DNA of 32,000 nucleotides, taken from assembly GCF_008065095.1 (NCBI RefSeq), contig NZ_CP042911.1, positions 3,840,001 to 3,872,000 on the forward strand, in the 5' to 3' direction. The stretch comes from Gemmata obscuriglobus. Lineage in GTDB: Bacteria; Planctomycetota; Planctomycetia; Gemmatales; Gemmataceae. The first letter of the stretch is position 1. Each line of letters starts with the position of its first letter. Position numbers and translations under genes: made by a program. The notes beneath the pieces were generated by a model. It saw nothing but the letters and a program-made list of their open reading frames with translations. It searched no databases and was not told the origin of the DNA. Positions 2 to 28,005 of the stretch are shown piece by piece.

Positions 2-1075
2 CGCGATGTCGTCGTCATCGACCTCGGGAACAAAGTGGGGCTGCTCCCGAAAGACGCCAGCACCTTCTCGGAAATCGAACTGACCGACGGTTCGACGTTC
101 CGCGTCGCCAAGTTCGCGCTCAAAGACAAGGCGTTCGCGGTCGATCAGTTCCCGGCCCCGGCGGGTGTCGGGTTGCCGAAATTGGATATCCCGGTTTCGG
201 CCGTGTTCTCGGCGATGAAGCGGGCCGACGACCAGAAGGTGCGGGACAACTGGAAGAAGATGCTGGGCACCCGGGGCAAACGGGACCTTTACGTGATCGC
301 CCAGGAGACCGGGTTCACGTTCATCCAGGGCACAGTGCTCGGCGGCGGTGCGGACGAGAAGGGGCGCCCGGTCGTGAACTTCGAGAAGGAGGCCGGGGGT
401 AAGGAAGACCTTTTGCTCACCCGGTCGGCGGGGCTCGTGTTCCACCAGCCGCAGCCCGCCTCGATACCCGCGACACTGTGCAAAGTGACCGACGTGTTCG
501 GTCACTCGCTCACCGCGGCCAACATCGCCCTCACGCCGGACGGCGTCACGGTGACCACCGTGGCAGGCGTGAAGGTGACGTACCCCTCGACGGCCGCGCT
601 GGTGCGGTTCGACTACGCGCTCGGGAACGTTGCGTATTTGTCGGACCTCGACCCGCAGCTCGAGGTGCCCGAACTCGCGCCGGAAGAAAAGGGCAAGCGC
701 CTCAACCAGCCCGCGGCGTACCTTAAAGATCGCTCCTTCGCCAACGAGGCGATCAAGCTCGACAACCAGACCTTCCCGAAGGGTGTCGTGCTGGCGCCGG
801 ACACGGTTGCCACGTTCAACCTCAACGGCGACTACTCGCAGTTCAAGGCGACGGCCGGCATCGACGAGAACGGGGCGGACGCCTCCGCCGCCGCGCGGGT
901 CACGATCGAGGGCGACGGGCAGGTGCTCTTTTCCGAACTGCTGAAGCGAAAAGATAAGCCGAAGGGGTTGGTTTTGGCCGTGAAGGGCGTCAAACAGTTG
1001 CGGGTCATTGTCGAGACCGACACGCCGCTGAACGGGAACTACGTCACGCTCGCGGACGCCCGTGTTCAGAAGTAA
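2..1075 (+). CDS. NPCBM/NEW2 domain-containing protein, 5' end outside the window
   Basis: The frame is open from nt 2; the listed ORF 35..1075 begins at an internal GTG. TAA at 1073-1075. The C-terminal ~150 aa fit the NPCBM/NEW2 carbohydrate-binding-module pattern (YLSDLDP, FPKGVVLAPDT, YSQFKATAGIDENG, LRVIVETD..GNYVTLADARV). Confidence 0.7.
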   Translation, partial: RDVVVIDLGNKVGLLPKDASTFSEIELTDGSTFRVAKFALKDKAFAVDQFPAPAGVGLPKLDIPVSAVFSAMKRADDQKVRDNWKKMLGTRGKRDLYVIAQETGFTFIQGTVLGGGADEKGRPVVNFEKEAGGKEDLLLTRSAGLVFHQPQPASIPATLCKVTDVFGHSLTAANIALTPDGVTVTTVAGVKVTYPSTAALVRFDYALGNVAYLSDLDPQLEVPELAPEEKGKRLNQPAAYLKDRSFANEAIKLDNQTFPKGVVLAPDTVATFNLNGDYSQFKATAGIDENGADASAAARVTIEGDGQVLFSELLKRKDKPKGLVLAVKGVKQLRVIVETDTPLNGNYVTLADARVQK

Positions 1076-1170
1076 CCGCGACGCGGTCGGGCGGCGGGCG
1101 CCGCGCCGGCCGGTTACGCTTTGAGCCCCACGCGGGGCAACCGTCTGGCAGGCAGGGGCTCGCGCCCCTG

Positions 1171-3015
1171 ATGGTTTTTCCGGGGCCGCACCACATGACC
1201 CGATTGCTCTCCGCGCTCCTGACCGCCCTCGCGGGGGCGGTTGTGTCCGTGTCGGTCGCGCCCGCCGCGCCGGTCGAGGTGGACCGGTCCGTCCTCGACG
1301 CGCAGAAGCAGCGCATCGCGGCCATCAAGAAGGTTCACCCGGCGGTCGTGGCGGTGTGCATGCCCGACGGCGGCGGGTGCGGGTCCGGGGTGCTGATCGA
1401 CCCCGAGGGGTACGCGCTTACCAACTTCCACGTCGTCCAGCCGACCGGGCCGTTCCCCACCGCTGGGCTCGCAGACGGTGTGCTCTATCAGGCCGTCGTG
1501 TGCGGCATCGACAAAGTCGGGGACGTGGCGCTCATCAAGCTCGTGCCGAAAGAGAAGGGCAAGCCGTTCCCCTTCGTCCAACTCGCCGACAGCGACAAGG
1601 TGAAGGCCGGCGACTGGTCGCTGGCGATGGGCAACCCGTTCTCGCTGGCGATGGATTTCACCCCCACGGTGACCTACGGCATCGTGAGTGGTGTGAACCG
1701 CTACCAGCCGCCCGAAGGGAAGGGGCTTCTGGAGTACACGGACTGCATCCAAATCGAGACATCGATCAACCCGGGCAACTCGGGCGGCCCGCTGTTCAAC
1801 ATGAACGGCGAACTGATCGGTATCAACGGCCGCGGGTCGTTCGAGAAGCGCGGCCGCGTGAACTCCGGGGTCGGCTACGCGATCTCGATCAACCAGATCA
1901 AGAACTTTATGGGGCACCTGCGGGCGGGGATCGACTCCGACCACGCCACCCTCGGCGCCTCGGTCGGCTCCGGGAGCGACGAAGGGCAGCTCCCGGCGAT
2001 GGTGGTCAAGCAGATCCTGGAGGAGAGCGACGCGGCGCGGCGCGGGATCGAGAACGGCGATCAGTTGCTGGACTTCGGGTTCGGCCGCCCGATGACCAGC
2101 GTGAACGCGTACAAAAACGCCCTGGGCATCTACCCCAAGGAGTGGCGCGTCCCGCTCACGGTCCGACGCAACAACACGACCCAGGAGTACCTGGTGCGGC
2201 TGATGGGCAACCAGGAGAAGGAGCGGGAGCAGCCGCCGGGGGCGGGCGGGCCGCCGATGCCGCCGCAACCGGCCCCGCGGCCCGCGGCCCCCGCGCCCAA
2301 GGGCGGAGACGCGACCACCGCCGGCATGTACGTGGCGAAGCCGGGCTACTCCAACTGGTACTTCAACGCCCTCGAACGCGATAAGGTGCTGGCGGCCTTC
2401 AAAAAGCAGGCGGGCGATTTCTCGGCGGTGCCGAACTCGCTGCTGATCGAGGGCGCGTTCAAAATGCCCGACCGAGAAGGGCCGATGCGGGCCGAGGTGG
2501 TCGAGGCGAAGGACGGGGCGAAAATCGCTCTCAAGCTGAACATCGAGACCACCCTGGAGCCGCTGAAGCAAAGCGACCTCACGCAGCAGAAGATGCCGCT
2601 CGGGAGCGGCGGGCTGATGATGGCGCTGTACCACTACCACCGGTTCCTGGCGCTCGGCGAGAAGGGGTTCGAGGGGCTGTTCGCGCACGGGGGTAACGAG
2701 CCGTTCTACCCGTACCCGGTGGACGGGAGCGTTCCGAAGTCGCTCGCGGCGCTGCGGGTCGACTGCGCGGTGCTCCTGACCAAGCACGGATCGGTTGACG
2801 GCAAGTGGTACTTCTCCCTCAAGGACCACACGCTCTTGGGCTTGGAGTGCTACGTTGCGAAGGACTCGAAGGACGGGCTCGAAGCCGACCCGTGCGAACT
2901 GTACTTCTCGAGTTACAAAGACTTCGACGGGCGGAAGCTCCCGACCCGCATTGAGGTCCGCTCCAGCGACAAGCGGTATGCGGTACTCGAGACCGCGAAG
3001 TGGACACTCAAGTAG
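1171..3015 (+). CDS. HtrA/DegP-like (S1C) trypsin-fold serine protease with a PDZ-like segment and a ~240-aa C-terminal extension; predicted active
   Basis: ATG at 1171; an alternative ATG at 1195 gives the signal peptide MTRLLSALLTALAGA. Triad motifs are intact: ALTNFHVV (His), GDVALIKL (Asp), GNSGGPLF (Ser). TAG at 3013-3015. Confidence 0.85.
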   Translation: MVFPGPHHMTRLLSALLTALAGAVVSVSVAPAAPVEVDRSVLDAQKQRIAAIKKVHPAVVAVCMPDGGGCGSGVLIDPEGYALTNFHVVQPTGPFPTAGLADGVLYQAVVCGIDKVGDVALIKLVPKEKGKPFPFVQLADSDKVKAGDWSLAMGNPFSLAMDFTPTVTYGIVSGVNRYQPPEGKGLLEYTDCIQIETSINPGNSGGPLFNMNGELIGINGRGSFEKRGRVNSGVGYAISINQIKNFMGHLRAGIDSDHATLGASVGSGSDEGQLPAMVVKQILEESDAARRGIENGDQLLDFGFGRPMTSVNAYKNALGIYPKEWRVPLTVRRNNTTQEYLVRLMGNQEKEREQPPGAGGPPMPPQPAPRPAAPAPKGGDATTAGMYVAKPGYSNWYFNALERDKVLAAFKKQAGDFSAVPNSLLIEGAFKMPDREGPMRAEVVEAKDGAKIALKLNIETTLEPLKQSDLTQQKMPLGSGGLMMALYHYHRFLALGEKGFEGLFAHGGNEPFYPYPVDGSVPKSLAALRVDCAVLLTKHGSVDGKWYFSLKDHTLLGLECYVAKDSKDGLEADPCELYFSSYKDFDGRKLPTRIEVRSSDKRYAVLETAKWTLK

Positions 3016-3133
3016 GCGGTAGCGGGCGACGGGCTCGCACGGGGCCGCGCCTCGTGCGGGTGTCGCCTTCATGCCGTGATTGGTTGGTACGAACGCACTC
3101 CGGCCCTGCTCGCCACAAGCACGACGATCACCC

Positions 3134-4321
3134 ATGCTCACGCGATACTCAGCACTGCTTGCCGTTGTGACGGTTTTCGCGGCGCCGGCGGCCGGTCGGG
3201 CGGCCGATCCGTTCGCCGAGACCGTGGACAAGGCCAACCGGAAGCTCGTGAAGATCTTCGGGGCCGGCGGGTTCCAGCGGCTCAACAACTACGGCACCGG
3301 GATCGTCATCAGCAGCGAGGGCCACATCCTCACCGTCGCGAGCCAACTGCTCGACACGTCGGACCTGGTGGTCCACATGCACGACGGGCAGCGGCTCCGA
3401 GCGCAGGTGGTCGCGACCGAACCGCTGCTCGACGCCGCGCTCATCAAGATCAAGGTCGAGGGCAAGAAGATCGACGAGCCCAACGGGCTGAACCTCGGCG
3501 AGAAGGAGTACTTCAACTTCGAGGAGGCGGTGAAGCGCGGCCCGGCGGCCCCGGGTGACTGGGTGCTGGCGCTGAGCAACACGTTCGAGATCGCGCTCCG
3601 CGAGGAGTCGCTCAGCGCGCAGCGCGGCGTGATCTCGGCGTACACGAAAATGGCCGGCCGCCGCGGCATCTTCGAGTTCCCGTACACCGGCGAGGTGTAC
3701 GTTGTGGACGCGATCACCAACAACCCCGGCGCCGCCGGCGGCGCGCTGCTCACCCGCAAGGGCGAACTGATCGGCATCATCGGCCGGGAGATCAAGAACA
3801 CGCTCACCGAGACCTGGATGAACTACGCCATCCCGATCACCGGGAAGGTCGAGTTCCGGGACCGGGTCACGGTCAAGGACAAGGACGGCAAGGACGTTGA
3901 GGAAGAGAAGACGGTCGCGGTCACGATCCCGGACTTCGTCCGGGCCGCGATGAAAGGCGAGTACAAGACGCGCAAGCGGCCGGACATCGCCGCGGGGCAG
4001 GGCGGGTATCACGGCATCGTGTTCGTGCCCAACGTGCTCGAGCGCACGCCGGCGTTCGTCGAGGACGTGGTGCCCGGGTCGCCGGCGGACAAGGCCGGGT
4101 TGCGGCCCGACGACCTCGTCAGCTTCATTGACGGCGAACCAGTGGTCAGCATCAAGGCGTTCGGCGACTTCATGCGCAAGAACACCCGCGCCGGTACCGT
4201 CGTGCGGCTCGAGGTGCGCCGCGGAGAGGCGCTCCAGACGATCGAAATGACGCTCGGGCAGCACCCGGCCAAGCCGAAGGCCCCGACCACCCCGGCGCCC
4301 CCGCCTGCTAACAAGAAGTGA
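3134..4321 (+). CDS. HtrA-like protein with C-terminal PDZ domain; predicted catalytically inactive (His->Ser, Ser->Ala)
   Basis: ATG at 3134 gives the signal peptide MLTRYSALLAVVTVFAAPAAG; the listed start at 3080 is a TTG. The HtrA layout is kept (GTGIVISSEGHILT, DAALIKI, GELIGIIG), but the His motif reads TVASQLL and the Ser motif reads NPGAAGGALL. PDZ segment: VVPGSPADKAGLRPDDLVSFIDGEPV. Confidence 0.8.
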   Translation: MLTRYSALLAVVTVFAAPAAGRAADPFAETVDKANRKLVKIFGAGGFQRLNNYGTGIVISSEGHILTVASQLLDTSDLVVHMHDGQRLRAQVVATEPLLDAALIKIKVEGKKIDEPNGLNLGEKEYFNFEEAVKRGPAAPGDWVLALSNTFEIALREESLSAQRGVISAYTKMAGRRGIFEFPYTGEVYVVDAITNNPGAAGGALLTRKGELIGIIGREIKNTLTETWMNYAIPITGKVEFRDRVTVKDKDGKDVEEEKTVAVTIPDFVRAAMKGEYKTRKRPDIAAGQGGYHGIVFVPNVLERTPAFVEDVVPGSPADKAGLRPDDLVSFIDGEPVVSIKAFGDFMRKNTRAGTVVRLEVRRGEALQTIEMTLGQHPAKPKAPTTPAPPPANKK

Positions 4322-6708: not shown

Positions 6709-7344
6709 TCACTTCAGTTCAACGTTCCAGTAGGCGTTGTCGATGAACGACTGCCACGACTGGTACTTCTTCTGAGTCAGCTTGAGGTTCAACAGCGGGC
6801 TGCGCTTCGGCTTCTCCGGCTTGCGGATCAGCGTCATGTTGGCCTGACGCGGGGTCCGTCCGCCCTTGCGAACGTTGCAGTCCACGCAGGCGCAGACGAT
6901 ATTGTCCCAGGTGGTCCCTCCACCTTGCGAGCGCGGGGTCACGTGGTCCAGCGACAGTTCCGTGGTCGGGAACTTCTTCCCGCAGTACTGGCACTGGTTG
7001 TGGTCGCGGGCGAAGATATTCCGCCTGTTGAACTTCACCGTCTGCTTGGGCATCTTGTCGTAGCCGAGCAACCGGACGACCCGCGGCGACAGCAGCTCCG
7101 AACTCGCGGTGCGGACCCAGTCGTCGTCCTCCTGGCGGAAGTTGGCGGCCCGGAACGCGCTAAGCTCCGACCACGACTCGAAACTGTATGTCGCGAACTG
7201 CCCCTCCTCCATGCTGACCACTTCGGCCAAGTTCTTGCACAACAGGCAGAACGCTCGACGGACGGAGATGACGTGTACGGCCATGAACGTCTTGTTCAGC
7301 ACCAACACGCTCGAGTCAAGGGCCGAGTACGAGCCGACATTCAT
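6709..7344 (-). CDS. HNH endonuclease (widely conserved ~200-aa standalone family)
   Basis: ATG at 7344 (MNVGSYSALDSSVLVLNKTF); the listed start at 7395 is a TTG. HNH core: CQYCGKKFPTTELSLDHVTPRSQGGGTTWDNIVCACVDCNVRKGGRTP. Confidence 0.85.
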   Translation of the reverse strand: MNVGSYSALDSSVLVLNKTFMAVHVISVRRAFCLLCKNLAEVVSMEEGQFATYSFESWSELSAFRAANFRQEDDDWVRTASSELLSPRVVRLLGYDKMPKQTVKFNRRNIFARDHNQCQYCGKKFPTTELSLDHVTPRSQGGGTTWDNIVCACVDCNVRKGGRTPRQANMTLIRKPEKPKRSPLLNLKLTQKKYQSWQSFIDNAYWNVELK

Positions 7345-7578: not shown

Positions 7579-8736
7579 TTAGGGCCGACACACGTGCCTG
7601 GCGAGTCGGGCGGTCGATTCGGTAAGTTCACTGTCGGTGCCGACGACCCGGAGGCGGTAGCGGGTCACCCGGACGAGCCCGTTCGGCGTGGCGAACGTCG
7701 CGCGGCCGTCGGTGCGCCCCGGGTACACCAGACCCACCCGCGGCGCACCGGTCAGCCCGGCGTAAGCCAGCACTTGGTGAAGGTCGGCCGGGTCGAGAGC
7801 CGTCGTCTTCCATTTGGCGTCGAGTACGCCGCGCGCGACGGCACGCTTACGGACCAGCACGTCGGGGCGCAGGGTCACCGGTCCGAGTGCGAACGCGGGG
7901 TGTGCGTCAACAGACCACCCAGGGCGATCCGCCAGCTCGCGCCGCAGCGAGCGAAAAAGGTACCGCTCGAACGCTTGGCCCAGATCGAGCAGGAACGCGT
8001 CCGAACCGGTTCGGAGCGGGTCGGCAACTGAGAAGCCCTGTTGAATGATAGCGCAGAGGTCAAGCAGCGCGTGGTAGCCGACCGCGCGGGGCTCTGTCCG
8101 GGCCGCGCTGAAGTCGGCGTCGGTGCCGTGGACGTTCGGTACCTCGGCGAGCGGGCGGGCCGCTGTTTCGATGCGTTCGCGCGTCGCGCGGGGCACATCG
8201 GGATGTGTGCCGAGGGTCGTTGCAGCAGACCGGGCGATACGGTTCCACGGGGTGTTCAGGTCGAACGACGGTTCGTCGATGTGGAAGTGCCCGGGAAACG
8301 CCTGGCTCGCGGCGTCGCGCATTTGCGCGGCCGTCCGGAGCTTGCCGCGCAGGAACGGCGACACCGACTCGACCTCGCCATACCCTGCGACCAACCCGGC
8401 GCGCGCGACCGCTTCGAGTTGATCCGCAAAGGCCGTAGCCAGTGTGCCGAGCAGCCCACCTTCGGGGATGCGTGTGGTGCCTCCGGTTGGGTGAACGCCG
8501 GAACCGAGAAGGAACTGGAGGTTCGGCCACGGGATTTTCGGCCCGATGAGATAGCGCGCGGCCGGACCGGTGAAGAACCCGACGTAGCCGCGGGGGGTGA
8601 GCGTGTACGTACCGCGCTCGAAGGTGGGACTGATGTCGATCAAGTGCCGCGCGGGGCCGAGCAGGAAATCGACCTCGGCGCGCGGGAGCTTGACCGCGCG
8701 TGGTCGCCGTTCGGTCAGGGCGATCGTGCGCGTCAC
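7579..8736 (-). CDS. mcrC: McrC-like PD-(D/E)xK nuclease subunit of a McrBC-family system
   Basis: GTG at 8736 overlaps the upstream TGA (GTGA), with GAGGAG 11 nt upstream; the listed start at 8784 is a TTG. McrC-type motifs: RGYVGFFTGPAARYLIGPKIPW, FLLDLGQAFERYLF, RPDVLV..GVLDAKWK, DLHQVLAYAG. Confidence 0.8.
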   Translation of the reverse strand: MTRTIALTERRPRAVKLPRAEVDFLLGPARHLIDISPTFERGTYTLTPRGYVGFFTGPAARYLIGPKIPWPNLQFLLGSGVHPTGGTTRIPEGGLLGTLATAFADQLEAVARAGLVAGYGEVESVSPFLRGKLRTAAQMRDAASQAFPGHFHIDEPSFDLNTPWNRIARSAATTLGTHPDVPRATRERIETAARPLAEVPNVHGTDADFSAARTEPRAVGYHALLDLCAIIQQGFSVADPLRTGSDAFLLDLGQAFERYLFRSLRRELADRPGWSVDAHPAFALGPVTLRPDVLVRKRAVARGVLDAKWKTTALDPADLHQVLAYAGLTGAPRVGLVYPGRTDGRATFATPNGLVRVTRYRLRVVGTDSELTESTARLARHVCRP

Positions 8737-10256
8737 GGGTCGTTCATCTCCTCGGCTGGTGCGCGTCGCTGGTCCGGGTTCCAAAGCTGATAGCCGGCAC
8801 CTTGCCCTGTCCCGCTCTCGTCAAGTTCTTTGGAGGGCGAACTGGGCGGTGAATTCGGCCAGAAGTACGTCACGGCAACGCGATCCGGGTGCGTGCGGTA
8901 CACCGGCGGCTGGCCATCGAACGGCCCGACGGGCACCGCGGGTAAGAACGCCGGCACTAATTCGGCAAGCGCGCGCGGGAAGCGGCCTGTCTTGATCCGG
9001 TGTCGTTCGCACGCGAGGCATACCGACGCTGCAAGCAGATCGGCGCGCGTCTGAAGTGACCTCTCGGCGATGCGCTCGAACGCAGGGATCATCCGACGCA
9101 TCACGGTGTACCGAATGTCGATCGGTGGGCCGCTCGGAATTTGTATCTTTTTGAGCGCGGATAACTGTTCGTGTGGAGGCAAATTCGACACCGCAACGCA
9201 CTGAGAGCAAATCTCCAGGCACTTCGCCCGGTCTCCAGGAAGTAGCGCTTTGTATGCCCGAAACGCCGCATAGTGAGCCGGCTTTGGCGCCCCAAACCCC
9301 GCGTAGTTGAACAGGCTCTCCAGCGGGATCGTTTCGTTCTGAACTCCGGTGAAGAAGTGGTCGAGCATCGCGCGCTCGCCGCGCATCCCGTACCGGAACC
9401 AAGGCACATCCGCTTCCGTAAGTAGCTCGGCTTGCAGTTCCGCGAGCTCGTCGGTCGGTTCGCCCCACGCGAGCGTTTGCATCGTACTGTCCGCCGCCGC
9501 ACGAGCGCAGGAGATGCGCGTCATCTGCGAGAGGAGTACCGGTTCGTCACCGAACGAGCGGGCGACAGCGAGCGCCGCACGGGCCGCGGTGATGCCGCGG
9601 TTGGGGTTCCCGTGCAGCGCTTCCCAACGTGCGTCGTACTCGAGCACGGTGATCACCCGCCGCGCTTGGGCCAAGTGGGGGAGCAATGTGGCAACCGGGT
9701 CCGGGCCGACCGTGAGCGGGTACGTGCCGGGCCGCTGGGCGCGGCGCAGATCAACTGCGCGGTCACGCAGCGTTCGGGTCGGCTCGGCCATTTTCGCGGC
9801 GTGCGCCAGCCCATCTTTGTCGGGCCGGTGGTTGTGCGCACGCCCCTGTTGCCACCTTGTCCGAGTTAGTTCCTCTTGCCACTCGTTCCAAGGCTCTGGC
9901 ACCTCACCAGCGAGAGCGAGAACCCGCGCGTTGAGATCTCCATCGGCCGGCGGCGGCATGTGCCGGGCGCGTTCCGCCAGGACTGCGTCCAGGCGCCAAC
10001 CCGGTTCTTCGGCGTCGAGTCGCTGCATGACCCGGTCCAGTTCGCGCTGCCCCACACGGCCCACCTGCCATCGGCCGACGAACAAGACCAGCGCCACCAT
10101 TGCGACCGCGCCGCCACGCCACAGCGCGAGTTTGCGGAGCCGACGCAGGCGCGAGTGTGGAGGGGACGGCAGATCATCTTCGGGATCGGTCACGTGTGGC
10201 GCTCCGCGGTCGTTGGGCTCCCGAGATGACGCCCGCGCCGCAGCGCCGTTTCGCAC
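8733..10256 (-). CDS. Membrane-anchored protein of unknown function: one N-terminal TM helix and a large helical extracytoplasmic domain
   Basis: GTG at 10256, or GTG at 10193 with GGAG 8 nt upstream. TM segment LALWRGGAVAMVALVLFVGRW. Plausible amino-acid composition, unlike the overlapping shadow ORFs. The C-terminal motif LACERHRIKTGRFPRALAELVPAFLPAVPVGPFDGQPPVY resembles pseudopilin GspG-type motifs. The stop overlaps the mcrC-like start. Confidence 0.65.
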   Translation of the reverse strand: MRNGAAARASSREPNDRGAPHVTDPEDDLPSPPHSRLRRLRKLALWRGGAVAMVALVLFVGRWQVGRVGQRELDRVMQRLDAEEPGWRLDAVLAERARHMPPPADGDLNARVLALAGEVPEPWNEWQEELTRTRWQQGRAHNHRPDKDGLAHAAKMAEPTRTLRDRAVDLRRAQRPGTYPLTVGPDPVATLLPHLAQARRVITVLEYDARWEALHGNPNRGITAARAALAVARSFGDEPVLLSQMTRISCARAAADSTMQTLAWGEPTDELAELQAELLTEADVPWFRYGMRGERAMLDHFFTGVQNETIPLESLFNYAGFGAPKPAHYAAFRAYKALLPGDRAKCLEICSQCVAVSNLPPHEQLSALKKIQIPSGPPIDIRYTVMRRMIPAFERIAERSLQTRADLLAASVCLACERHRIKTGRFPRALAELVPAFLPAVPVGPFDGQPPVYRTHPDRVAVTYFWPNSPPSSPSKELDESGTGQGAGYQLWNPDQRRAPAEEMNDP

Positions 10257-10448
10257 GCCCGGCGTAATCGGTCAGCCGGGCCGTTCGCTGTTAACGTCTG
10301 CGTGGCATTCGGGCTCCTGATTCATGGTCCGGTTGCGGGCGCCTTTTTGCGCCGCGCAAACAGGACTGTCTGTGCCACAAGAAACAAGCACAAAATACTG
10401 GATCGTGAATGGCGCCCGCGGTGTCTGTCGATCAGTCATCGGTTGAAA

Positions 10449-13073
10449 TCAGGGCTCATCGTTCGGCACCGAGGGCTTCGGCTTGCGGCGTCTCTCGCCG
10501 GCCCCGACGAGCCGTTCCGGCGTGTAGTCGGCGAGCCGCTCCTCGCGCCCGCCGAGGTAGTCGAGCAGCACCGGGCGCACGTGGTGCGTCCACACCGCCG
10601 CCAGTTTATCGTGATCCAACTCGGGCACCATGAAGAAGCTGTGCCCGATCTGCCGGTCCGGCCCGAGGTCGCGGGCGAGCCGGCGGTTCAGTTCCTCGAA
10701 CAACAGCACCACCCGCGGGTTGAACGTCGGGTCGGTCGGTTCGGCGTCGGCGCGGGATTCGAGCCACGAGGCGAGCACCACGGCGTCCGCGGGCATGTCC
10801 ACGAACGAGAACCGCCGCCGCAGCGCGTGGTCGAGCGACACCGCCGAGCGGTCCAGCGGGTTCATCGTCGCGAGGACGAACACGTTCTCCGGCAGGCGGA
10901 ACTCGCGCCGGGAGTACGGCAGCGTGATCGCCTGGTCGCGATACTCCAGCAGGTACAGCAGTTCGCCGAAGATGCGTGAGACGTTACCGCGGTTCAACTC
11001 GTCCACGATGAGGACGTGCGGCTCGCTGGGCCGCGCGCGGGCCTGCTCGGCGAACTGGCACAGCAGCCCGTCCTCCACGGGGAACGCGATCTCGCCGCGT
11101 GCGCTCCCTTCAACCGGCCGCGCCCGGATGCCCTCCACGAACTCTTCGTAGCTGTACGAGGGGTGGAACTGGACCAGCCGCACGCAGTCGGCTCGGTCGC
11201 CCGCCAGCAGCCGCGCCAGGCACCGGGCGACGTGCGTTTTCCCGGTCCCCGGCACGCCCTGGAGCACGAGCTGCCGCTTCAACCGCAGCAGGCCGAGCAC
11301 GCGGTCGAGCCAGACTTCCGACAGGAACGTTTCGCGGTGGAACGACGCCGGGTCGTAGGGCGGGGCGCCGTCCGGGGCTCCGGCCCGGCGCGAGAGCAGC
11401 GCCCGCGGGTCGCCCTCGGCCGCGCAGGCGAACGCCGGCAGCAGCCGGTCGAAGGTGAGCAGGATTTCGCCCGTCAGGTCCTCGCGGCGCAAGAGCGGCG
11501 ACTCGGACGGCAGCCGCTTGCCGATCGCCAGCGTTTTGTGAACCGCCCACGCCCGTAGGTCCGCGGCCGACCGCACCGCGACTTCGGTCGTCAGGTCGTC
11601 GTCCGTCCAGAATCGGCACTCCGCGAACACGTTGCCCGTGTGGAGCGCGCGGAAGATTGCGTCCGCGTGTTCCTGGATGTTGCGGCGGAACTGCTTGCCC
11701 GCTTCGCGCGCCGAGCGGCCCAGGTGGAACCCGTAGTGGACTCCATCGTCCGCGACCCGAACGAAGAACTGCGCGTCCGCGCGCTTGTTCGCCAGGGCCT
11801 TCCGGTAGAAGGTGATCCACTGCACCGGCTGGTAAGGGCCGCCGCGCCCGAAGTCGTTCTTGCAGATGCTCGTGACCGCCCGCCCGCTCCGCGCGTCGCA
11901 CTCCAGGTCCCAGCCGTGCTCGCGGTTCAGGACCGGGTGGATGTACCGCTCCGCGACGGCCTCGCACAGCTCCACCAGCGGCTCGCGCAGCACGAACTGG
12001 TAGCGGTCGCGGTGCTCGGCCATCCAGTCTTTGGCGTTGGCTTCGGCCAGTTCGCCCAGGAACGCGAACGTGTCCGAGCAGAACCCCGCGAACCCGTCGC
12101 CGCCCGGCTCGGGGCACCGCGCGTCCGCGACGGCGGTCACCACGTCGGCCAGTTCGAGCGGGTGAACTTTGAAGCGGTCGCGCAGCACCGCGGAAACCTC
12201 GCACCAGAGGGCGGCGCGATCGTTTTCGGGCAGTGCGGGGAGGTACGCGTCGTCGAGGGCGGGGAGGGCGGTTTCCCAGCGCCCGTCCGGAAATGCCGTT
12301 CGGAACGCCCCGAACGCTGCGGGCGAGTCGCCGGCGGCGCTTGCGGCTGCGAACTCGCGGACCGCGTTGAGGCACTCGTCGGGGGTGGACCGCATCCGGT
12401 GGGCGAGCGGCACGCGGGTGCGCACCTCCCGCACGGCCTGCTCCACACGGCCGGGTGTCGCGGCCCACGCGAACGCGCCATCGGGGACGGAACCGGTCGG
12501 GAACTCGCGGCCACGGGTACGCGACACCCGCTCCAGAAACTGCCCGACCTCGAACGGGGGCAAGTCCGGGGCGTGCCGGCGGACCGCATCGAACCCGCGA
12601 CTCACGGCCTCAAATCGCGCGCGGACATCCGCTCCGCCGTCGCGAAGCATTCCCAGCCTTTGGAGCCCGGTTTCCGTAGCCGGGCACCACACCGGACCGG
12701 TATCGGGATCAATGCGACTGAGTATCGCGGACCAGAACGCCGGCCCGAGTCCCGGGAGGGTGTACACCCCACCCGGTGTCAGACAGTGCGCCAAACGGTC
12801 CGGGAGCGGATCGCTCGCGCGCACGAGGTGGTTCAGCGCGTGCCGGATCAATCGCACCCGCTGCGACACAAGTTCGGGGCGAAATAGAATCGGTTGTGTC
12901 GTGCGGATAAAGGTGTCGAGGGCGGTCGCCAATTCTTCGTCGGTGGCACTGTCGAGAAACCGGACGTTGAGACGAGCCGGCGCAGACGCGAATGGAGCCA
13001 CTCCTCGGGCCGCGCGAAACGCGGTCAGAAGTGGAGCCAAGGGTAACACACGTAATCGAAACCCGGACGACAT
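10449..13073 (-). CDS. mcrB: McrB-family AAA+ GTPase with a long N-terminal extension (unknown helical region plus DUF2461-like module)
   Basis: ATG at 13073; the listed start at 13151 is a TTG. McrB signatures: LQGVPGTGKTH (Walker A), HVLIVDELNRGNVSRIFGELLYLLE, VLATMNPLDRS, DHALRRRFSFV. DUF2461/TIGR02453-like stretch: FLGELAEANAKDWMAEHRDRYQFVLREPL, ICKNDFGRGGPYQ, FFVRVADDGVHYGFHLG. Confidence 0.85.
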   Translation of the reverse strand: MSSGFRLRVLPLAPLLTAFRAARGVAPFASAPARLNVRFLDSATDEELATALDTFIRTTQPILFRPELVSQRVRLIRHALNHLVRASDPLPDRLAHCLTPGGVYTLPGLGPAFWSAILSRIDPDTGPVWCPATETGLQRLGMLRDGGADVRARFEAVSRGFDAVRRHAPDLPPFEVGQFLERVSRTRGREFPTGSVPDGAFAWAATPGRVEQAVREVRTRVPLAHRMRSTPDECLNAVREFAAASAAGDSPAAFGAFRTAFPDGRWETALPALDDAYLPALPENDRAALWCEVSAVLRDRFKVHPLELADVVTAVADARCPEPGGDGFAGFCSDTFAFLGELAEANAKDWMAEHRDRYQFVLREPLVELCEAVAERYIHPVLNREHGWDLECDARSGRAVTSICKNDFGRGGPYQPVQWITFYRKALANKRADAQFFVRVADDGVHYGFHLGRSAREAGKQFRRNIQEHADAIFRALHTGNVFAECRFWTDDDLTTEVAVRSAADLRAWAVHKTLAIGKRLPSESPLLRREDLTGEILLTFDRLLPAFACAAEGDPRALLSRRAGAPDGAPPYDPASFHRETFLSEVWLDRVLGLLRLKRQLVLQGVPGTGKTHVARCLARLLAGDRADCVRLVQFHPSYSYEEFVEGIRARPVEGSARGEIAFPVEDGLLCQFAEQARARPSEPHVLIVDELNRGNVSRIFGELLYLLEYRDQAITLPYSRREFRLPENVFVLATMNPLDRSAVSLDHALRRRFSFVDMPADAVVLASWLESRADAEPTDPTFNPRVVLLFEELNRRLARDLGPDRQIGHSFFMVPELDHDKLAAVWTHHVRPVLLDYLGGREERLADYTPERLVGAGERRRKPKPSVPNDEP

Positions 13074-13174
13074 CTTACAACGTCTCGCGAAGCGAGGAAC
13101 GGGGTAGATCGTATCAGATTTGAGTGCTGCTGAAGAGGTGGGTTTCGACAAAGAGACGTGAACTTGGCAGAAAC

Positions 13175-13238
13175 AAAAAAGTCCCGCCGGAGGTCACTAC
13201 AGCGTCGCCCATTCACTGTAGGTACCAACCGGCGGGAC
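13175..13238 (-). terminator. Terminator-like branched hairpin followed by a T6 run on the minus strand, upstream of the mcrB-like gene
   Basis: The minus strand reads GTCCCGCCGG - 38 nt containing a CTACAG/CTGTAG sub-hairpin - CCGGCGGGAC - TTTTTTGTTT. The outer stem is 10 bp (13181-13190 with 13229-13238). Confidence 0.4.
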
Positions 13239-13386
13239 AAAGGAATAATACACCGGCTTTTTTCAGAGGCAAGCTGACTGTCTGTTTTTTCGGCGGATCG
13301 CGGCCTCGTGTCCGAAAAGCCGACACCGCTAACGCCCAGTACGGCCTGGATTTGGACGCTTGCCAAATATCTAAACAATAAGATCG

Positions 13387-13427
13387 ATGTGCCGCATGAT
13401 GTCGCCCGTTGCAGCCATGCGGCGCAT
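13387..13427. other. 12-bp hairpin (one G.U pair) with a 17-nt loop in an AT-rich intergenic region
   Basis: ATGTGCCGCATG (13387-13398) pairs with CATGCGGCGCAT (13416-13427). The loop carries GTCGCCCGTT, which resembles the loop motif GTCGCCCATT of the hairpin at 13197-13221. Confidence 0.3.
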
Positions 13428-13537
13428 ATCATGGTGTAAGATAATAGTTAACTTGGACTTCATACGATCTGCACCGCTAACGAACCGTCATCGTGTAGAA
13501 ATAGTGTGATATTAGACGCCCGAGAGGGGAGCTCTCC

Positions 13538-14293
13538 GTGCTCGATGCCATCGTGATCTCGGACATCCACCTCGGCAGCGAAAACTGTCAGGCCAAGTAC
13601 CTCGCTCACTTTTTACACACCGTGCGCCGCGGCGATCTTAAAGCCCGGCACCTTGTCCTTAACGGCGATGTCTTCGATTCGATCGACTTCCGCCGGCTGA
13701 AGAAGAACCACTGGAAGATTCTCTCCGAGCTACGGAAGCTCGCTGACGAGATGGAAGTGGTTTGGATCAACGGCAACCACGACGGCACCGCCGAGGTCGT
13801 TTCTCATTTGCTCGGGGTCCGCTGCGCGGACGAAACGGTCGTGGAGAGTGGCGGGCGGAAGATCCTCTTCCTGCACGGGCACCGGTTCGACGAGTTCATT
13901 ACCCGCTACCCGTTCATCACCTGGGTGGCGGACCGGGTGTACAACTTCCTCCAGAAGATCGACCAGTCACACACGTTCGCCAAGTTCGCCAAACAGCGCA
14001 GCAAGACCTTCCTACGCTGCACCCAAAAGATCGAGGCCGACGCGGTCAAGTACGCCGCCAAGCGGGGGTGCGACGTGGTGTGCTGCGGGCACACTCACCT
14101 TCCCGTCGCGAACGAGACCGGGCCGATCCGGTACTACAACAGCGGGTGCTGGACCGAGAAGCCCTGTCACTACCTCACGGTCGTGAACGGCGTTGTCAAC
14201 GTGTGCTCGTACACCGAAGAGGTGTCCGACGAGGTTCTCAACATGGTCGATCCGCCGGCCCTGGCGCCGGCGGTGCTGGCTTCGGTCGCGTGA
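13538..14293 (+). CDS. Calcineurin-like metallophosphoesterase (LpxH-like layout)
   Basis: GTG at 13538 with GGGGAG 6 nt upstream. Motifs: VISDIHLGS, LNGDVFDS, INGNHD, LHGHRFD, CCGHTHLP. Confidence 0.85.
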   Translation: MLDAIVISDIHLGSENCQAKYLAHFLHTVRRGDLKARHLVLNGDVFDSIDFRRLKKNHWKILSELRKLADEMEVVWINGNHDGTAEVVSHLLGVRCADETVVESGGRKILFLHGHRFDEFITRYPFITWVADRVYNFLQKIDQSHTFAKFAKQRSKTFLRCTQKIEADAVKYAAKRGCDVVCCGHTHLPVANETGPIRYYNSGCWTEKPCHYLTVVNGVVNVCSYTEEVSDEVLNMVDPPALAPAVLASVA

Positions 14294-16549: not shown

Positions 16550-17461
16550 TCACGCCGCGGTGCGGGGTTCGGGCTTGCCCTGCCGTGCGTTTTGGTCAAA
16601 TTCCCGCACCACGTCCACCGCAAATTGGATCGCGGGACCGGTCCACTCGACCATGTTGGCGGTGTAGCCTGCTTTCACTCCGGCCTGAGTGACGTGCGCG
16701 AGTAACGCGCCGACCGGGCACAGCTTTTGAGACGCAAGTTTCGCATCGTACTCGCGCAACCGGCGGTGCAACTCCTGGCCGTTCGTCGGCAGATTGACCG
16801 GCTTCCCAGCGTCCGCTTTTGCCCCTTCAGTTTTGTGTACGTCTGGGTTGGTGGGTTCGACTTTGGGCACCGCGGTGTTCGGTTGCACCGCGGCGACTGA
16901 TGGGACCGACGGCTTTGGGGGCGCTTCGGGCTTGGGCACATCCTTCTTCGGTGCGGGCGCGACAACCCCAACGGGCGCCACGTTTGCAGACTGTGATTTT
17001 GCATTCGGGAGTGCCCAGGCCGGGAGCGGCGGCGGTTGAACAATTTGCTTCTTCACCGAGTCATAATCGACCCAGGCCGCGGACAACCGGTAGAGGTATC
17101 GGCCGATGCCGAATTTCACAGCGGCGCGCTTGAGCGCGTCGCTGAACGCCGCCTTGAGGCGGTCGCCGAGATCGGGTTGCTCGCTCGGCGATCCGACATC
17201 GGTTTTGGTGATCCAGTTGTCCCCGATCTTGCAGCGGAGCTTACACATCACCGAGCCGTCCGGGAGTATCTCGTACACGTCCTCCCAGTGCTCCACACCG
17301 AGCACATCGTCCAGCCGGTCCTGAATGAGGCGGGCGTCGACATACGCCATCGCCAGACACCGGTTGTTCTTGACCATCTGCGGTTTGAACTTCACGTCGC
17401 GCGGCTCGAACGGGTCCGCGAGCGCGGCGGTGAGTGCGACGACCCGCGGGTCGCGCGGCAT
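16550..17461 (-). CDS. Rad52/Rad22-family single-strand annealing protein with a Pro-rich linker and an extra C-terminal domain
   Basis: ATG at 17461. Motifs: VKFKPQMVKNNRCLAMAYVDARLIQDRLDDVLGVEHWE and LKAAFSDALKRAAVKFGIGRYLYRL, followed by PPLPAWALP. Confidence 0.75.
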   Translation of the reverse strand: MPRDPRVVALTAALADPFEPRDVKFKPQMVKNNRCLAMAYVDARLIQDRLDDVLGVEHWEDVYEILPDGSVMCKLRCKIGDNWITKTDVGSPSEQPDLGDRLKAAFSDALKRAAVKFGIGRYLYRLSAAWVDYDSVKKQIVQPPPLPAWALPNAKSQSANVAPVGVVAPAPKKDVPKPEAPPKPSVPSVAAVQPNTAVPKVEPTNPDVHKTEGAKADAGKPVNLPTNGQELHRRLREYDAKLASQKLCPVGALLAHVTQAGVKAGYTANMVEWTGPAIQFAVDVVREFDQNARQGKPEPRTAA

Positions 17462-17640
17462 GGCGGCTTCAGTAGACACTGCGCACCCTCCCTCAACGAC
17501 TGATGTGTTGAGGGTAGTGTACGGGTGTATTTGGGGCGGGACGATGTCAGTTGGCGCTCCGGCGCGACCGATTGTTCCGGGTGTGCGGATCGGGTTGAGC
17601 GATTGCACCGCGCTGACGGCGGTGGCAGGACGAACCGCAA

Positions 17641-18360
17641 TTATGCCGCCTTGCGGGGTGCGAGTAGACGTTTCCACCACGGCAAATGCTTCGGCTTTGA
17701 TTTGGGCTTTGGCGGGGGGGGCGGTGGCTCCTCGCTTTTTTCTTCTTCCGCTTCGGTGGCCCCTTCCGATTTGGCTTCGGCCGCTTCCAGGTCGCGTGCC
17801 GACACGGCTTGCAGCAAGACGCCGAGTACGACGAAGCCGACCACCAGGCCGTTGAGCGGCGCGACGTTACGGGCGACCCAATCACCCGTATCGAGGGTCC
17901 AAACTTGCTCGGCCAGCAGTATTCCGGCGTGGCCTGCGAAGAGGACGCCCAACAGGCTGGTGAGCAGCATCGTCCAGAGGCGGTAGAGCAGGATTCCGAA
18001 CAGTCCGCCGCACAGGAACACGGCCCACAATTCTTGCGCCTGAGGGAACACCCACTGAGCCGCGAGCCATGCCCCGCAGCCGCCGGCCACGAACGCCAGC
18101 ACCTTCGCCAGTTCCAGGGCGAGTAGCCCCGCCGACACCGCCAACAGGATGCCCACCGCCATCACCTGTGTCCCGCCGGACGTCCGGCCGGCGTTCAGGC
18201 CGATGAGCCCGGACGCCAGGGTGATGCCCGCGACGACCCAGAACCGGTGCCACCGCCACCCGAACAGCCACAGCGCGACGCCAAGCACCGTAATGGTGCC
18301 GGCCATGGCACCGGTCATGCCGCGGGCCTCGGCGAGGATGTCGGGTGCGATCAACTGCAC
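17641..18360 (-). CDS. Polytopic membrane protein with a Glu/Pro/Lys-rich C-terminal tail
   Basis: GTG at 18360, or ATG at 18318 with GAGG 8 nt upstream. About 6 hydrophobic segments. Tail: EAEEEKSEEPPPPPPKPKSKPKHLPWW. Confidence 0.7.
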   Translation of the reverse strand: MQLIAPDILAEARGMTGAMAGTITVLGVALWLFGWRWHRFWVVAGITLASGLIGLNAGRTSGGTQVMAVGILLAVSAGLLALELAKVLAFVAGGCGAWLAAQWVFPQAQELWAVFLCGGLFGILLYRLWTMLLTSLLGVLFAGHAGILLAEQVWTLDTGDWVARNVAPLNGLVVGFVVLGVLLQAVSARDLEAAEAKSEGATEAEEEKSEEPPPPPPKPKSKPKHLPWWKRLLAPRKAA

Positions 18361-25199: not shown

Positions 25200-26591
25200 A
25201 TGTTTCCGCTGTTACTGCTCGCGGGTTGCGCCGGTGCGGACCCGACCCCGCCCGCCGACACGTGGCGGGGCTTCCGCAACGACGGGTCCAGTTGCACGAC
25301 CGCCCGCGACCTGCCCCTGACCTGGGGGCCGAACGAGAACGTGGCGTGGCGCGCCGCGCTGCCGGGGTACGGGCAGTCGTCGCCGGTGGTGTGGAAGGGC
25401 CGCGTGTTCGTGACCGCCGTTGAGGGGCCGGAGAAGGAGAAGTTGCTGGTCGTCGCGGTGGACGCGCGGACCGGCGCGGTGGCCTGGAAGAAGGAGTTCG
25501 CGGCCTCCCAGAAGGGGAAGAACAACCCGATGATGAGCCGCGCCGGCCCGACCCCGGTGGCGGACGCCGAGGGCGTCTACTGCCTGTTCGAGAGCGGCGA
25601 CCTGCTCGCGCTCACGCACGACGGCGGCACCCTGTGGCACCGGTCGCTCGCGAAGGAGCACGGCGAGATCAAGAACAACCACGGGCTGGGCAGTTCGCTC
25701 GCCGAGGCCGGGCGCGCGGTGTTCGTGCAGGTCGATCACGCCGGCCCGTCGTACCTGCTCGCGGTGTGCAAGGCCGACGGCAAGGAACTGTGGAAAACGG
25801 AGCGGCCCGGCCGCACGTCGTGGACCTCGCCGGTCGTCACGACGTTCAACAACAAGGCCGCGGTTCTCGCCAGCGGGGGCGGCACGCTCACCGCCTACGA
25901 CGCGGCGACCGGCAAGGAACTGGCCGCGCTCGACGGCCTCACCGGGAACACCATCCCGTCGCCGACGGCCGCCGGCGATCTGATCGCGGTCGGCGCCGGC
26001 GAGAACCGCATGAAGCCGGACCTCAAGGCGTCCGCCAAGTCGAACTGTCTGGTGCGGTTCGGCGCGCGGGACGGGAGGCCCGCGTTCGAGCCGGTTTGGA
26101 ACGGCACGAAGGCGGTCAGCCACCACGCCAGCCCGGTCGTTCACCAGGGCCACGTGTACTTCGTCACCAAACTCGGGCTCGTCCACTGCCTCGACCTGAA
26201 GACCGGGGCGGAGCGGTACGCGGAGCGGCTCGACGACGAAACGTGGGCCACCCCGGTCGGGGCCGGGGACCGGGTGTACTTCTTCGGCAAGTCGGGCGTC
26301 ACCACGGTGCTCAGGGCCGGCGGCGAGTTCGAGAAACTGGCGGTCAACCGGCTGTGGTCGAAGGAGGACTACGCGGCGCGCCTGGACGCCGCGAAGAGGG
26401 CCGCGGCGGACGCGCTGCCGAAGCCGCCGGAGGGCAAGGGGCCGGGGGGCGGCCCGCCGGTGCCGAAGGCGGAACTCGAAGCGACCCGGTACTCGGCCGT
26501 GGGCGACGTGGTGTACGGCGTCGCGGCCGTGGACCGCGCGCTGTTCGTCCGCACCGGGACCGAACTCGTTTGCATCCGCCCGGCCAAGTGA
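25200..26591 (+). CDS. PQQ-like (BamB-like) beta-propeller repeat lipoprotein
   Basis: Lipobox in MFPLLLLAGCAG. Repeated propeller motifs: SSPVVWKGRVFV, VVAVDARTGAVAWK, LTAYDAATGKEL, VHCLDLKTGAE. Confidence 0.8.
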   Translation: MFPLLLLAGCAGADPTPPADTWRGFRNDGSSCTTARDLPLTWGPNENVAWRAALPGYGQSSPVVWKGRVFVTAVEGPEKEKLLVVAVDARTGAVAWKKEFAASQKGKNNPMMSRAGPTPVADAEGVYCLFESGDLLALTHDGGTLWHRSLAKEHGEIKNNHGLGSSLAEAGRAVFVQVDHAGPSYLLAVCKADGKELWKTERPGRTSWTSPVVTTFNNKAAVLASGGGTLTAYDAATGKELAALDGLTGNTIPSPTAAGDLIAVGAGENRMKPDLKASAKSNCLVRFGARDGRPAFEPVWNGTKAVSHHASPVVHQGHVYFVTKLGLVHCLDLKTGAERYAERLDDETWATPVGAGDRVYFFGKSGVTTVLRAGGEFEKLAVNRLWSKEDYAARLDAAKRAAADALPKPPEGKGPGGGPPVPKAELEATRYSAVGDVVYGVAAVDRALFVRTGTELVCIRPAK

Positions 26592-26613
26592 CACTTCCGA
26601 GAGGGGAACGAAA

Positions 26614-28005
26614 ATGCGCTGCGCGCTGTGGTTCGTGCTGACGGCCGCACTCGGCGGGGCCGTCGCGGGGGGCGACGACAAGGCGCCCGCGAAGGCGAAG
26701 CCGCCGGCACCGATCGTCCGGCTGTTCGTTCAGGACATGAAGACGTGTTCGGTGAAGTGGGCCGACGTGCGGGTGGGGGCGGACCAGGAACTGCTGCTCG
26801 ACCCGCTCGCCGATGTGGCCGGGTTCAAGAAGCTCGACCCGGCGAAGCAGAAGCTGGTCCAGATGCGCGAGTCCGGCAGCCTCGTGTGTGTCGGCGTCCG
26901 GGACGACGCCGACGGCGCGTTCGAGAGCGGGTGGGTGCTCATGCAGTCCGGCGTCGGGTACGCCGACCACGGGGACCACGGGCACTGGACGTACAAGGCG
27001 GCGCCCGCGGTGATCGACAGCCGGCTCGACGCCAAGCAGGGGAACCCGGCCCACCTGTACCGCTACGACGGGTGGTTCTACCTCGCCAACGACAAGCTCA
27101 ACGGGTACACCCGCATCGACCCCGAGGGGTACGCCACGAACGACGCGCGGTCGCTGGGCCAGGGGAAGCCGCTGTTCGTGACCGGCGGGGGCGGGCACAT
27201 CACCCTGGCGGTCGTCGACAACAAGGTCGGGTACGCGTGCTGGATCGACGGCGGCGGGCCGAACAAGGGGCGCGTCGACGTGTCCCCGGTGGGCATCGGC
27301 GCGAGGCCCGAGCCGGCGTACTCGTTCGCGCTACCGACCGGCGGCATCCACGGGGCCGCCGCGTGCGCCGGGAAGGTGTTCTTCGCGCCGTCCGCGGGCG
27401 TGTGCTGGGTGGACGCGGACCCCGGGCTGAAGCTCAAGGCCGATCAGGTCCAGGTGCGGCACATCGACCTCGGCACGGAGGGCGACAAGCCGCGCCGCAC
27501 CGGGGCGTTCGTCACCCACGGGCACCACGTCCTGTTCGTCACCGGCAAGGAGGCGCCCAACTTGGCCGTGCTGGACGCCAAGAGCGCCGAGCCGAAGCCG
27601 GTGTTCCTCCCGCTCGCGGTCAAAAAGGGCACACACGCGGTTACGCCGGAGGTGGTCACGTCGGTGGACGGGAAGACCTACGCGCTGGTGTTCCACGACC
27701 GGGTGAAGGACAGCGACGCGGCCGACGCGCTGGAGGTCATCGCGCTCGACCCGAACGGGGACGGCGATTTCTCCGACATGAAGTCGGTGAAGGTGCTGGC
27801 GGTCGGGAGGAGCGCGGTCGAGGGGCACTTCGGGCACCACGACCTCGCGTTCGACGCGAACCGCAAGTACGGGTTCTTCACCAACCCCGGTGACGGCACG
27901 CTCTCGGTCCTGTCGCTCAAGACGCTCGACGTGGTGGCCACGTTCACCGTCGGCGGCACCCCGGCGGCGCTCGTCGCCCGCGGCGGGGAAGACCACGACG
28001 ACTGA
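26614..28005 (+). CDS. Secreted beta-propeller protein, AztD-like candidate periplasmic zinc metallochaperone
   Basis: Signal peptide MRCALWFVLTAALGGAVAG. The YADHGDHGHWTYKAAPAV...GNPAHLY segment resembles my recollection of the HGDHxH region of AztD-type proteins. C-terminal propeller-like repeat: GDGTLSVLSLKTLDVVATFTVGG. The CDS is confident; the function is only moderately supported. Confidence 0.6.
   Translation: MRCALWFVLTAALGGAVAGGDDKAPAKAKPPAPIVRLFVQDMKTCSVKWADVRVGADQELLLDPLADVAGFKKLDPAKQKLVQMRESGSLVCVGVRDDADGAFESGWVLMQSGVGYADHGDHGHWTYKAAPAVIDSRLDAKQGNPAHLYRYDGWFYLANDKLNGYTRIDPEGYATNDARSLGQGKPLFVTGGGGHITLAVVDNKVGYACWIDGGGPNKGRVDVSPVGIGARPEPAYSFALPTGGIHGAAACAGKVFFAPSAGVCWVDADPGLKLKADQVQVRHIDLGTEGDKPRRTGAFVTHGHHVLFVTGKEAPNLAVLDAKSAEPKPVFLPLAVKKGTHAVTPEVVTSVDGKTYALVFHDRVKDSDAADALEVIALDPNGDGDFSDMKSVKVLAVGRSAVEGHFGHHDLAFDANRKYGFFTNPGDGTLSVLSLKTLDVVATFTVGGTPAALVARGGEDHDD

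Follow-up and report, generated by a model that had tools for sequence, protein, structure and literature searches.

A recurrent McrBC-type locus of the Gemmataceae with membrane-protein genes between mcrB and mcrC

The textbook type IV restriction system, McrBC, consists of two genes. What, then, is a gene for a membrane protein doing between mcrB and mcrC in the chromosome of Gemmata obscuriglobus: is it an accident of one genome, a working part of the nuclease system, or a passenger in its operon? The locus lies within the 32,000 nucleotides (nt) analysed here (contig NZ_CP042911.1, positions 3,840,001 to 3,872,000; hereafter 'the window'). On its minus strand, a gene for an McrB-type GTPase (10449-13073), a gene for a single-pass membrane protein that we call 'MID' (8733-10193) and a gene for McrC (7579-8736) follow one another in the same orientation. 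Instead of abutting or overlapping, as in the canonical two-gene unit, mcrB and mcrC are thus parted by the 1.46-kb MID gene and a 255-nt spacer (10194-10448). The original prediction, made from the letters of the window, tentatively read this arrangement as a three-component, possibly envelope-tethered, McrBC-derived defence system. Our analysis shows that it is a family-wide variant of McrBC, with MID credibly coupled in translation to the nuclease and an McrB whose N-terminus is of the DUF2461 type, and that this variant is undescribed in the literature that we searched.

The McrB and McrC assignments of the original prediction hold on profile searches, structural matches and conserved motifs: the Pfam searches that it had proposed found AAA_5 and DUF2461 in McrB and McrBC in McrC, and left MID matchless. 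The mcrB gene most likely starts at ATG 13073 (874 amino acids, aa), where homologue N-termini place it, and its longest open reading frame (ORF) reaches TTG 13151. This ORF matches AAA_5 (PF07728) at 4e-18 and DUF2461 (PF09365) at 2.6e-14. Its AAA+ GTPase core (10587-11333, minus strand) contains a Walker A motif (GVPGTGKT), a Walker B motif (DELNRGN) and the NxxD GTP signature (MNPLDR) of McrB proteins, and the longer strings quoted earlier (GVPGTGKTH, LIVDELNRGN, MNPLDRS and LRRRFSF) can all be read in it. Among 45 homologues, nearly all motif positions are invariant or at least 90% conserved, with variation at the xx of NxxD and at the two residues that precede DELNRGN. The E. coli McrB structure 6hz4 matches residues 607-855 at 6e-45, and the NCBIfam McrB model matches residues 607-849 at 4e-42, i.e. 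the GTPase half only; the equivalog cut-off is missed (NF008457, 144.5 bits against the 637 needed). Homologues also carry a precomputed McrB_lid annotation (PF28529).

The remainder of the protein is unusual for an McrB. An extension of about 575 aa precedes the GTPase and lid, and consists of a helical region of about 335 aa followed by a region with the DUF2461/DUF1054 fold (PF09365; 11436-12071, minus strand, residues 361-572 in the numbering of the 900-aa ORF). The AlphaFold2 model of the extension has a predicted local distance difference test (pLDDT) score of 87, and its DUF2461 part matches the DUF1054 structures 3mqz and 2a8e with a probability of 1.0 and a target template modelling score of 0.61-0.68. 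The helical part has no Pfam match even at E <= 10, and its Foldseek matches to MutY are not significant (E ~0.8). An invariant 'PGLGP' stretch in this N-terminal region (12700-12800) resembles a helix-hairpin-helix by eye. The modified-cytosine-binding domain found at this end of the E. coli equivalog is replaced here by the helical region and DUF2461. The DUF2461/DUF1054 fold is a candidate for a module by which an McrB recognises nucleic acids.

The McrC protein (385 aa) combines a DUF2357-type N-terminal region with a PD-(D/E)xK nuclease. It matches Pfam McrBC (PF10117) at 6e-32, with 111.2 bits against a gathering cut-off of 23.9, and falls short of the NCBIfam McrC equivalog cut-off (31 against 338 bits). 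The PD...D-A-K catalytic motif (7813-7866, minus strand) is intact: residues P291, D292, D306 and K308, as well as the DLHQ motif, are invariant in 18 homologues. The McrC of Thermococcus gammatolerans (6ut5_G) gives a weak match that spans the nuclease motif. Separately, a Gemmataceae metagenome-assembled genome (MAG) contains an orphan McrC homologue (L034, 4033-5217; 33% identity, PF10117 at 4e-41), which adjoins an O-methyltransferase and a tyrosine phosphatase, with no McrB, MID or HNH gene nearby.

To see how far this gene order extends, we surveyed one genome per GTDB species by an McrC-alignment scan and by tblastn with the window proteins. The neighbourhood comparison suggested by the original prediction gave a clear answer: B, middle gene and C follow one another in several genera of the Gemmataceae, in one syntenic chromosomal slot. 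The survey yielded about 34 Gemmataceae loci, some 30 of which span the whole interval from mcrB to mcrC. The order major facilitator superfamily (MFS) transporter - metallophosphoesterase - McrB - MID(n) - McrC - HNH - HtrA was found at about 30 genome loci, and metagenomes add about 11 partial MID-McrC-HNH loci. This recurrence spans Gemmata, Frigoriglobus, Fimbriiglobus and MAGs. The genomes closest to the window are those of Gemmata algarum JC673 and JC717 (~95% amino-acid identity). The full series can be seen in Gemmata sp. SH-PL17, in Frigoriglobus tundricola and on an SRA contig: MFS - metallophosphoesterase (-) - McrB (DUF2461-AAA_5-lid) - two or three copies of MID - McrC - HNH - HtrA.

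The number of MID copies between B and C varies from locus to locus. A single copy is present in the window and in nine other loci, two copies in about 12, three in L002 and L008, and four in a Fimbriiglobus locus (L035); L017, L019 and L024 have none. In a neighbour-joining, midpoint-rooted McrC tree, the Fimbriiglobus clade, with two to four MIDs, is the most divergent, and the MID-less loci are nested within MID-bearing clades, which indicates that MID is ancestral to the locus of the family and was lost secondarily, at least twice inside such clades. The MID tree resolves at least two paralogue lineages, alpha, which adjoins McrC and to which the MID of the window belongs, and beta, which adjoins McrB; it also shows repeated duplications and losses. 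All three genes of the window are under purifying selection, with similar pairwise ratios of non-synonymous to synonymous substitution rates (dN/dS) against L003: 0.20 (B), 0.27 (MID) and 0.21 (C). Two MAG contigs labelled Singulisphaera sp. (L005) and Isosphaera sp. (L026) also carry the Gemmataceae cassette with much of its flanking synteny; their McrC identity is 52-64%, and they are probably mis-binned or mislabelled.

The junction between MID and mcrC is well conserved. Direct reading of the window bears out the predicted overlap of the MID stop codon TGA with the mcrC start codon GTG (GTGA, 8733-8736, minus strand). The predicted Shine-Dalgarno-like hexamer GAGGAG is likewise present, within the MID coding sequence (8747-8752, minus strand); its distance from the mcrC GTG is 10 nt, not 11 nt as first given. 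The hexamer recurs across the Gemmata/Frigoriglobus clade, and at nearly every related locus, those of Fimbriiglobus included, the last MID gene and mcrC overlap by GTG(A). Even the MID-less loci retain GTGA, together with gaps or scars of 60-370 nt between B and C. This conservation makes the suggested translational coupling of MID and nuclease credible, and we therefore propose that McrC is made together with MID. Because both the gene order and the overlap recur across genera, the B-MID-C arrangement is not an accident of one genome.

On the other side of MID, a gap of about 190-250 nt to the GTPase gene had been predicted. The gap exists, and measures 255 nt when MID is taken to start at GTG 10193 (486 aa), the most likely start since homologues begin MTDPD...; an alternative start at GTG 10256 would give 507 aa. 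Relatives hold a second, beta-type MID paralogue at this place. The spacer of the window contains no recognisable remnant of a lost paralogue, no minus-strand terminator-like site and no unusual RNA fold (z = -0.8); it resembles the L003 sequence upstream of MID in its last ~50 nt only.

A metagenome survey seeded with the neighbouring HNH protein provided 45 loci in which 1.5 kb or more of sequence precedes the HNH gene, and these reveal how far the cassette can be taken apart. The series MID-C-HNH occurs at 11 of them, B-C-HNH without MID at four, and B-HNH without C at one (L089); three have C-HNH with the upstream part unresolved (L068, L121, L129). In another five to seven, MID(-MID)-HNH occurs without McrC, the MID ORFs being intact with their transmembrane helix, and about 19 have none of B, MID or C upstream of HNH. 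At L083 and L088, the HNH-HtrA synteny is kept and a DUF1559 gene fills the slot (DUF1559-HNH-HtrA). MID and McrC are kept together without an adjacent McrB at L029, L031, L097, L099 and L100. Loci of the Urbifossiella type have a PQQ_2 propeller gene (L029, 7172-8410; L031, 1152-2477) immediately before MID-McrC-HNH and no McrB, and an Urbifossiella McrB (DUF2461-AAA_5-lid) stands alone on its own contig (L143, 268-2883), so that the system appears to be split in this lineage, with McrB apart from MID-McrC-HNH. The cassette has thus long occupied one chromosomal slot, in varying composition; MID-McrC is its tightest pair, and each element can persist without the others. It is not a fixed three-component system, contrary to what the original prediction suggested, given the zero to four copies of MID and the existence of B-C-only and MID-only loci.

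The ORF between the two McrBC genes does have the one N-terminal hydrophobic helix noticed earlier. MID is a predicted bitopic protein of N-in/C-out topology, as supported by its single hydrophobic helix and a positive-inside charge bias. The helix (LALWRGGAVAMVALVLFVG; 10074-10130, minus strand) follows a predicted cytoplasmic tail (VTDPEDDLPSPPHSRLRRLRK; 10131-10193, minus strand) and leads into a predicted extracytoplasmic body (8736-10073, minus strand) made of a juxtamembrane helix, an all-alpha repeat and a C-terminal beta-sheet. The N-in orientation is the one favoured by net charge in 58 of the 62 homologues examined, and in the fusions with ABC-2 permeases described below, K/R-rich cytoplasmic loops precede the MID helix, in agreement with the same orientation; about 430 aa of MID are therefore predicted to be periplasmic. 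The AlphaFold2 model, built from the 62 homologues, has a mean pLDDT of 91 and comprises a disordered N-terminal tail, a long helix containing the transmembrane segment, the all-alpha repeat body and a small C-terminal beta-sheet. Neither the whole protein, its 62 homologues nor its fragments matched Pfam, NCBIfam or PADLOC (for PADLOC, no family at E <= 0.1). A sequence-profile search of the PDB returned a chance match to moesin only, and Foldseek searches of the PDB and BFVD only generic helical repeats (E >= 0.08, TM < 0.2). Comparison of the MID C-terminus with the DUF1559 protein of the window by hhalign gave a probability of 5.8%; its likeness to the head domain of pseudopilins (GspG/DUF1559) is one of motifs and serves as a lead only.

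The alpha-type MIDs of Gemmata, Frigoriglobus and the window share the cytoplasmic tail MTDPD(D/E)DFAPPPPRSRFRRLRK. This tail of about 20 aa carries a conserved acidic, proline-rich motif, has a pLDDT of ~50, matches the folded body in conservation (column conservation 0.76, versus 0.71 for the whole protein) and has been duplicated along with the MID gene. In this type, it would be the only plausible contact of MID with McrC or McrB.

The MID genes of the locus form one small branch of a giant family, for which Pfam, NCBIfam and PADLOC have no model. A profile search of 1.84 billion cluster representatives (50% identity) retrieved 39,308 relatives at E <= 1e-3, of which 4,754 also pass E <= 1e-30. 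Distant MIDs occur as fusions to ABC-2 permeases, in which they follow the last transmembrane helix (P0101, P0424, P0436, P0445, P0469), directly after extracytoplasmic function (ECF) sigma genes (P0108, P0111), and in DUF1501 or PSCyt neighbourhoods. Tandem MID-MID fusions seem to exist as well: L008 has two copies in one open reading frame (535-3456), and P0361 (1018 aa) has two MID-matching stretches. No further MID-like ORF was detected in the window by hmmsearch.

What does MID do for the nuclease? We tentatively favour, at slightly less than an even chance, the reading that the locus is an McrBC-type nuclease operon in which MID, translated together with McrC, serves as a facultative accessory of the envelope and positions the nuclease at the membrane or modulates it there. 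In the ancestor of the family, MID genes would have entered the space between mcrB and mcrC; later they would have duplicated, diverged and repeatedly been lost. As in canonical McrBC, hexamers of McrB would load on DNA via their N-terminal region and activate cleavage by McrC; family membership suggests a role in defence, including GTP-dependent cleavage of modified foreign DNA. MID would be anchored in the cytoplasmic membrane and extend its helical-repeat body into the periplasm, and the alpha type would present its conserved acidic, proline-rich 20-aa tail to the cytoplasm. It would thus place or modulate the nuclease at the membrane without being an obligate third subunit. If so, the locus would link envelope sensing to restriction and offer a first functional handle on a giant unannotated planctomycete protein family (~39,000 cluster representatives).

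Several observations weigh against this reading. All loci descend from one ancestor, so that the conserved order counts as a single evolutionary event followed by persistence. McrBC occurs without MID in at least seven loci (L017, L019, L024, L074, L076, L080, L081), and an intact MID stands beside HNH without McrC in at least five (L087, L095, L096, L105, L109). Most of the MID family is found in contexts unrelated to McrBC. Finally, the cytoplasmic tail measures only ~5-9 aa in several lineages, including loci with both B and C (L030, L032), so that direct contact between MID and the nuclease cannot be general. For the same reason, we rejected the idea that the tail is a universal docking peptide. 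The 'envelope-tethered' system of the original prediction is likewise not supported as stated, since ~430 aa of MID lie outside the cytoplasm by prediction and the tails of several lineages are that short; tethering may be entertained as a possibility.

Several of these observations lend substance to a possible, if somewhat doubtful, alternative: that MID is an independent periplasm-facing protein which was inserted once into the operon and has no physical or signalling link to McrBC. It would have been kept for its own usefulness and because translation of mcrC came to depend on the overlap, McrBC being an ordinary cytoplasmic type IV-like nuclease and the two forming at most complementary co-expressed layers. 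The intact genes of MID-only and B-C-only loci, the unrelated contexts of the giant family, a body predicted to lie in the periplasm and tails that are minimal in many lineages, and the lack of any PADLOC defence model matching MID are all in line with such a passenger. It is less easily reconciled with a MID position between the two subunits and a coupling through GTGA that are both kept across genera, with the retention of the MID-McrC pair where McrB is not adjacent, or with a conserved cytoplasmic tail that is specific to the McrBC-linked alpha clade. Moreover, all MID matches in the two complete genomes of Frigoriglobus tundricola and Gemmata sp. SH-PL17 map to the locus (in a word-limited search). 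Should MID prove not to modulate the nuclease, the B-MID-C, B-C, MID-C, MID-only and B-only variants that share one chromosomal slot would constitute a natural experiment on the persistence of operon-embedded passengers.

A stronger version of the accessory reading, which we consider unlikely, is restriction gated across the envelope. The periplasmic domain of MID would sense an envelope event, possibly phage adsorption, DNA entry or surface damage, and would recruit or license McrC-McrB via the transmembrane helix and tail. Were this true, the locus would provide the first example of type IV restriction under the control of an extracytoplasmic sensor, and the fast-diversifying MID array (0-4 copies) would be its specificity repertoire.

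It is very improbable, in our view, that the cassette is instead a domesticated, vertically inherited module serving a core function of the Gemmataceae outside immunity, for instance a link between nucleoid or DNA processing and the invaginated membrane. The slot is a fixed one among housekeeping genes, and the surroundings in the window are ordinary chromosomal ones (HtrA-type proteases, an MFS transporter, a metallophosphoesterase, a Rad52-family protein, a pseudouridine synthase and CobW), with flat GC across genes and no signs of mobile elements found. The DUF2461 and GTPase parts of McrB are as conserved as the flanking genes (50-100% identity). We favoured a core housekeeping cassette after the genome scan, and set it aside when the metagenome scan revealed its patchy presence: many relatives with the HNH-HtrA synteny have only part of it or none (L083, L088, L089 and the MID-only loci), and such patchiness is typical of accessory or defence genes. 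Lastly, a plain two-gene McrBC with an insertion specific to this genome, the case that would have overturned the original prediction and for which one could cite canonical McrBC and the non-Gemmataceae loci L038-L041 described below, is refuted by orthologous MIDs at ~30 genome and ~11 partial metagenome loci in several genera.

How does the Gemmataceae locus compare with known systems? It resembles the McrBC of E. coli and Thermococcus in its AAA+ GTPase with Walker A/B motifs, NxxD and lid, in the PF10117 fold and PD-(D/E)xK motif of McrC, and in the common strand and B-before-C order. It differs from them in that one to four membrane-protein genes part mcrB from mcrC, and in that mcrC is translationally coupled to MID in the window, not to mcrB; furthermore, the N-terminus of E. 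coli McrB binds 5-methylcytosine, whereas that of the window McrB consists of the ~335-aa helical region and the DUF2461/DUF1054 fold. At the non-Gemmataceae loci L038-L041, the McrB GTPase match is followed by the McrC match at a distance of ~0.2-1.4 kb, and nothing MID-like intervenes.

Membrane sensors or anchors are a feature of other defence systems, such as Zorya (ZorAB), Kiwa (KwaA) and Shield (ShdA), and the logic of co-encoding a membrane protein with a cytoplasmic nuclease is similar. However, none of these shows sequence or profile similarity to MID (PADLOC), and MID is a single-pass protein with a large outward domain rather than a motor, channel or nuclease fusion. A further comparison is with the extracytoplasmic domains of planctomycete anti-sigma factors and the C-terminal extensions of ABC-2 permeases, as distant MIDs follow ECF sigma genes or extend permeases; the MID of the window differs in having no anti-sigma or permease part and in having McrB and McrC as neighbours.

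McrBC derivatives with extra components have been described as CoCoNuT and CoCoNuT-like systems (Bell et al. 2024, PMC11090510). In one CoCoNuT-like clade, the GTPase is fused to an FtsB-like transmembrane/coiled-coil domain (PMC11090510); here, in contrast, the membrane element is encoded by a separate gene. An NxD motif in the GTPase, tandem nucleases and long coiled coils characterize the CoCoNuTs (PMC11090510). The window McrB has NxxD (MNPLDR) instead of NxD and the AlphaFold2 models of the window show no long coiled coils, and on these grounds we rejected membership in this group; tandem nucleases and RNA-linked domains were sought in the window proteins by Pfam scans only. A text search of the same survey found no Planctomycetes, no TIGR02453 and no mention of a membrane gene between B and C. 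Our literature searches found no paper pairing McrBC with DUF2461, and nothing relevant on McrBC together with Planctomycetes, Gemmata or transmembrane proteins.

Among the neighbouring genes, the HNH gene downstream of mcrC (6709-7344, minus strand; 211 aa) is 75-98% identical across related loci, and its protein gives partial NCBIfam matches to the IscB/Cas9d HNH region. We considered it as a fourth component and rejected this, as 27 of the 45 metagenome loci have no McrC upstream of it and its dN/dS is as low as 0.05 (0.05-0.09, versus ~0.2-0.3 for the cassette genes). It looks like a very conserved independent gene.

Upstream of mcrB, the divergent intergenic region shared with the metallophosphoesterase gene (13074-13537, strand unassigned) has a lower GC content. 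The interval 13001-14000, at 55.5% GC versus ~62-73% elsewhere, is the sole clearly lower-GC stretch near the locus. A sigma-70-like site, which is a match to consensus only, lies inside the intergenic region at 13245-13272 (minus strand). Further away, a PQQ_2 beta-propeller gene and then a 463-aa ORF without Pfam match occupy 25200-28005 on the plus strand, and this ORF is not MID-like by hmmsearch. A Rad52/Rad22-family ORF is located at 16550-17680 (minus strand; Pfam 1.4e-12), and a Rad52_Rad22 gene also flanks the locus in Gemmata sp. SH-PL17 (L001).

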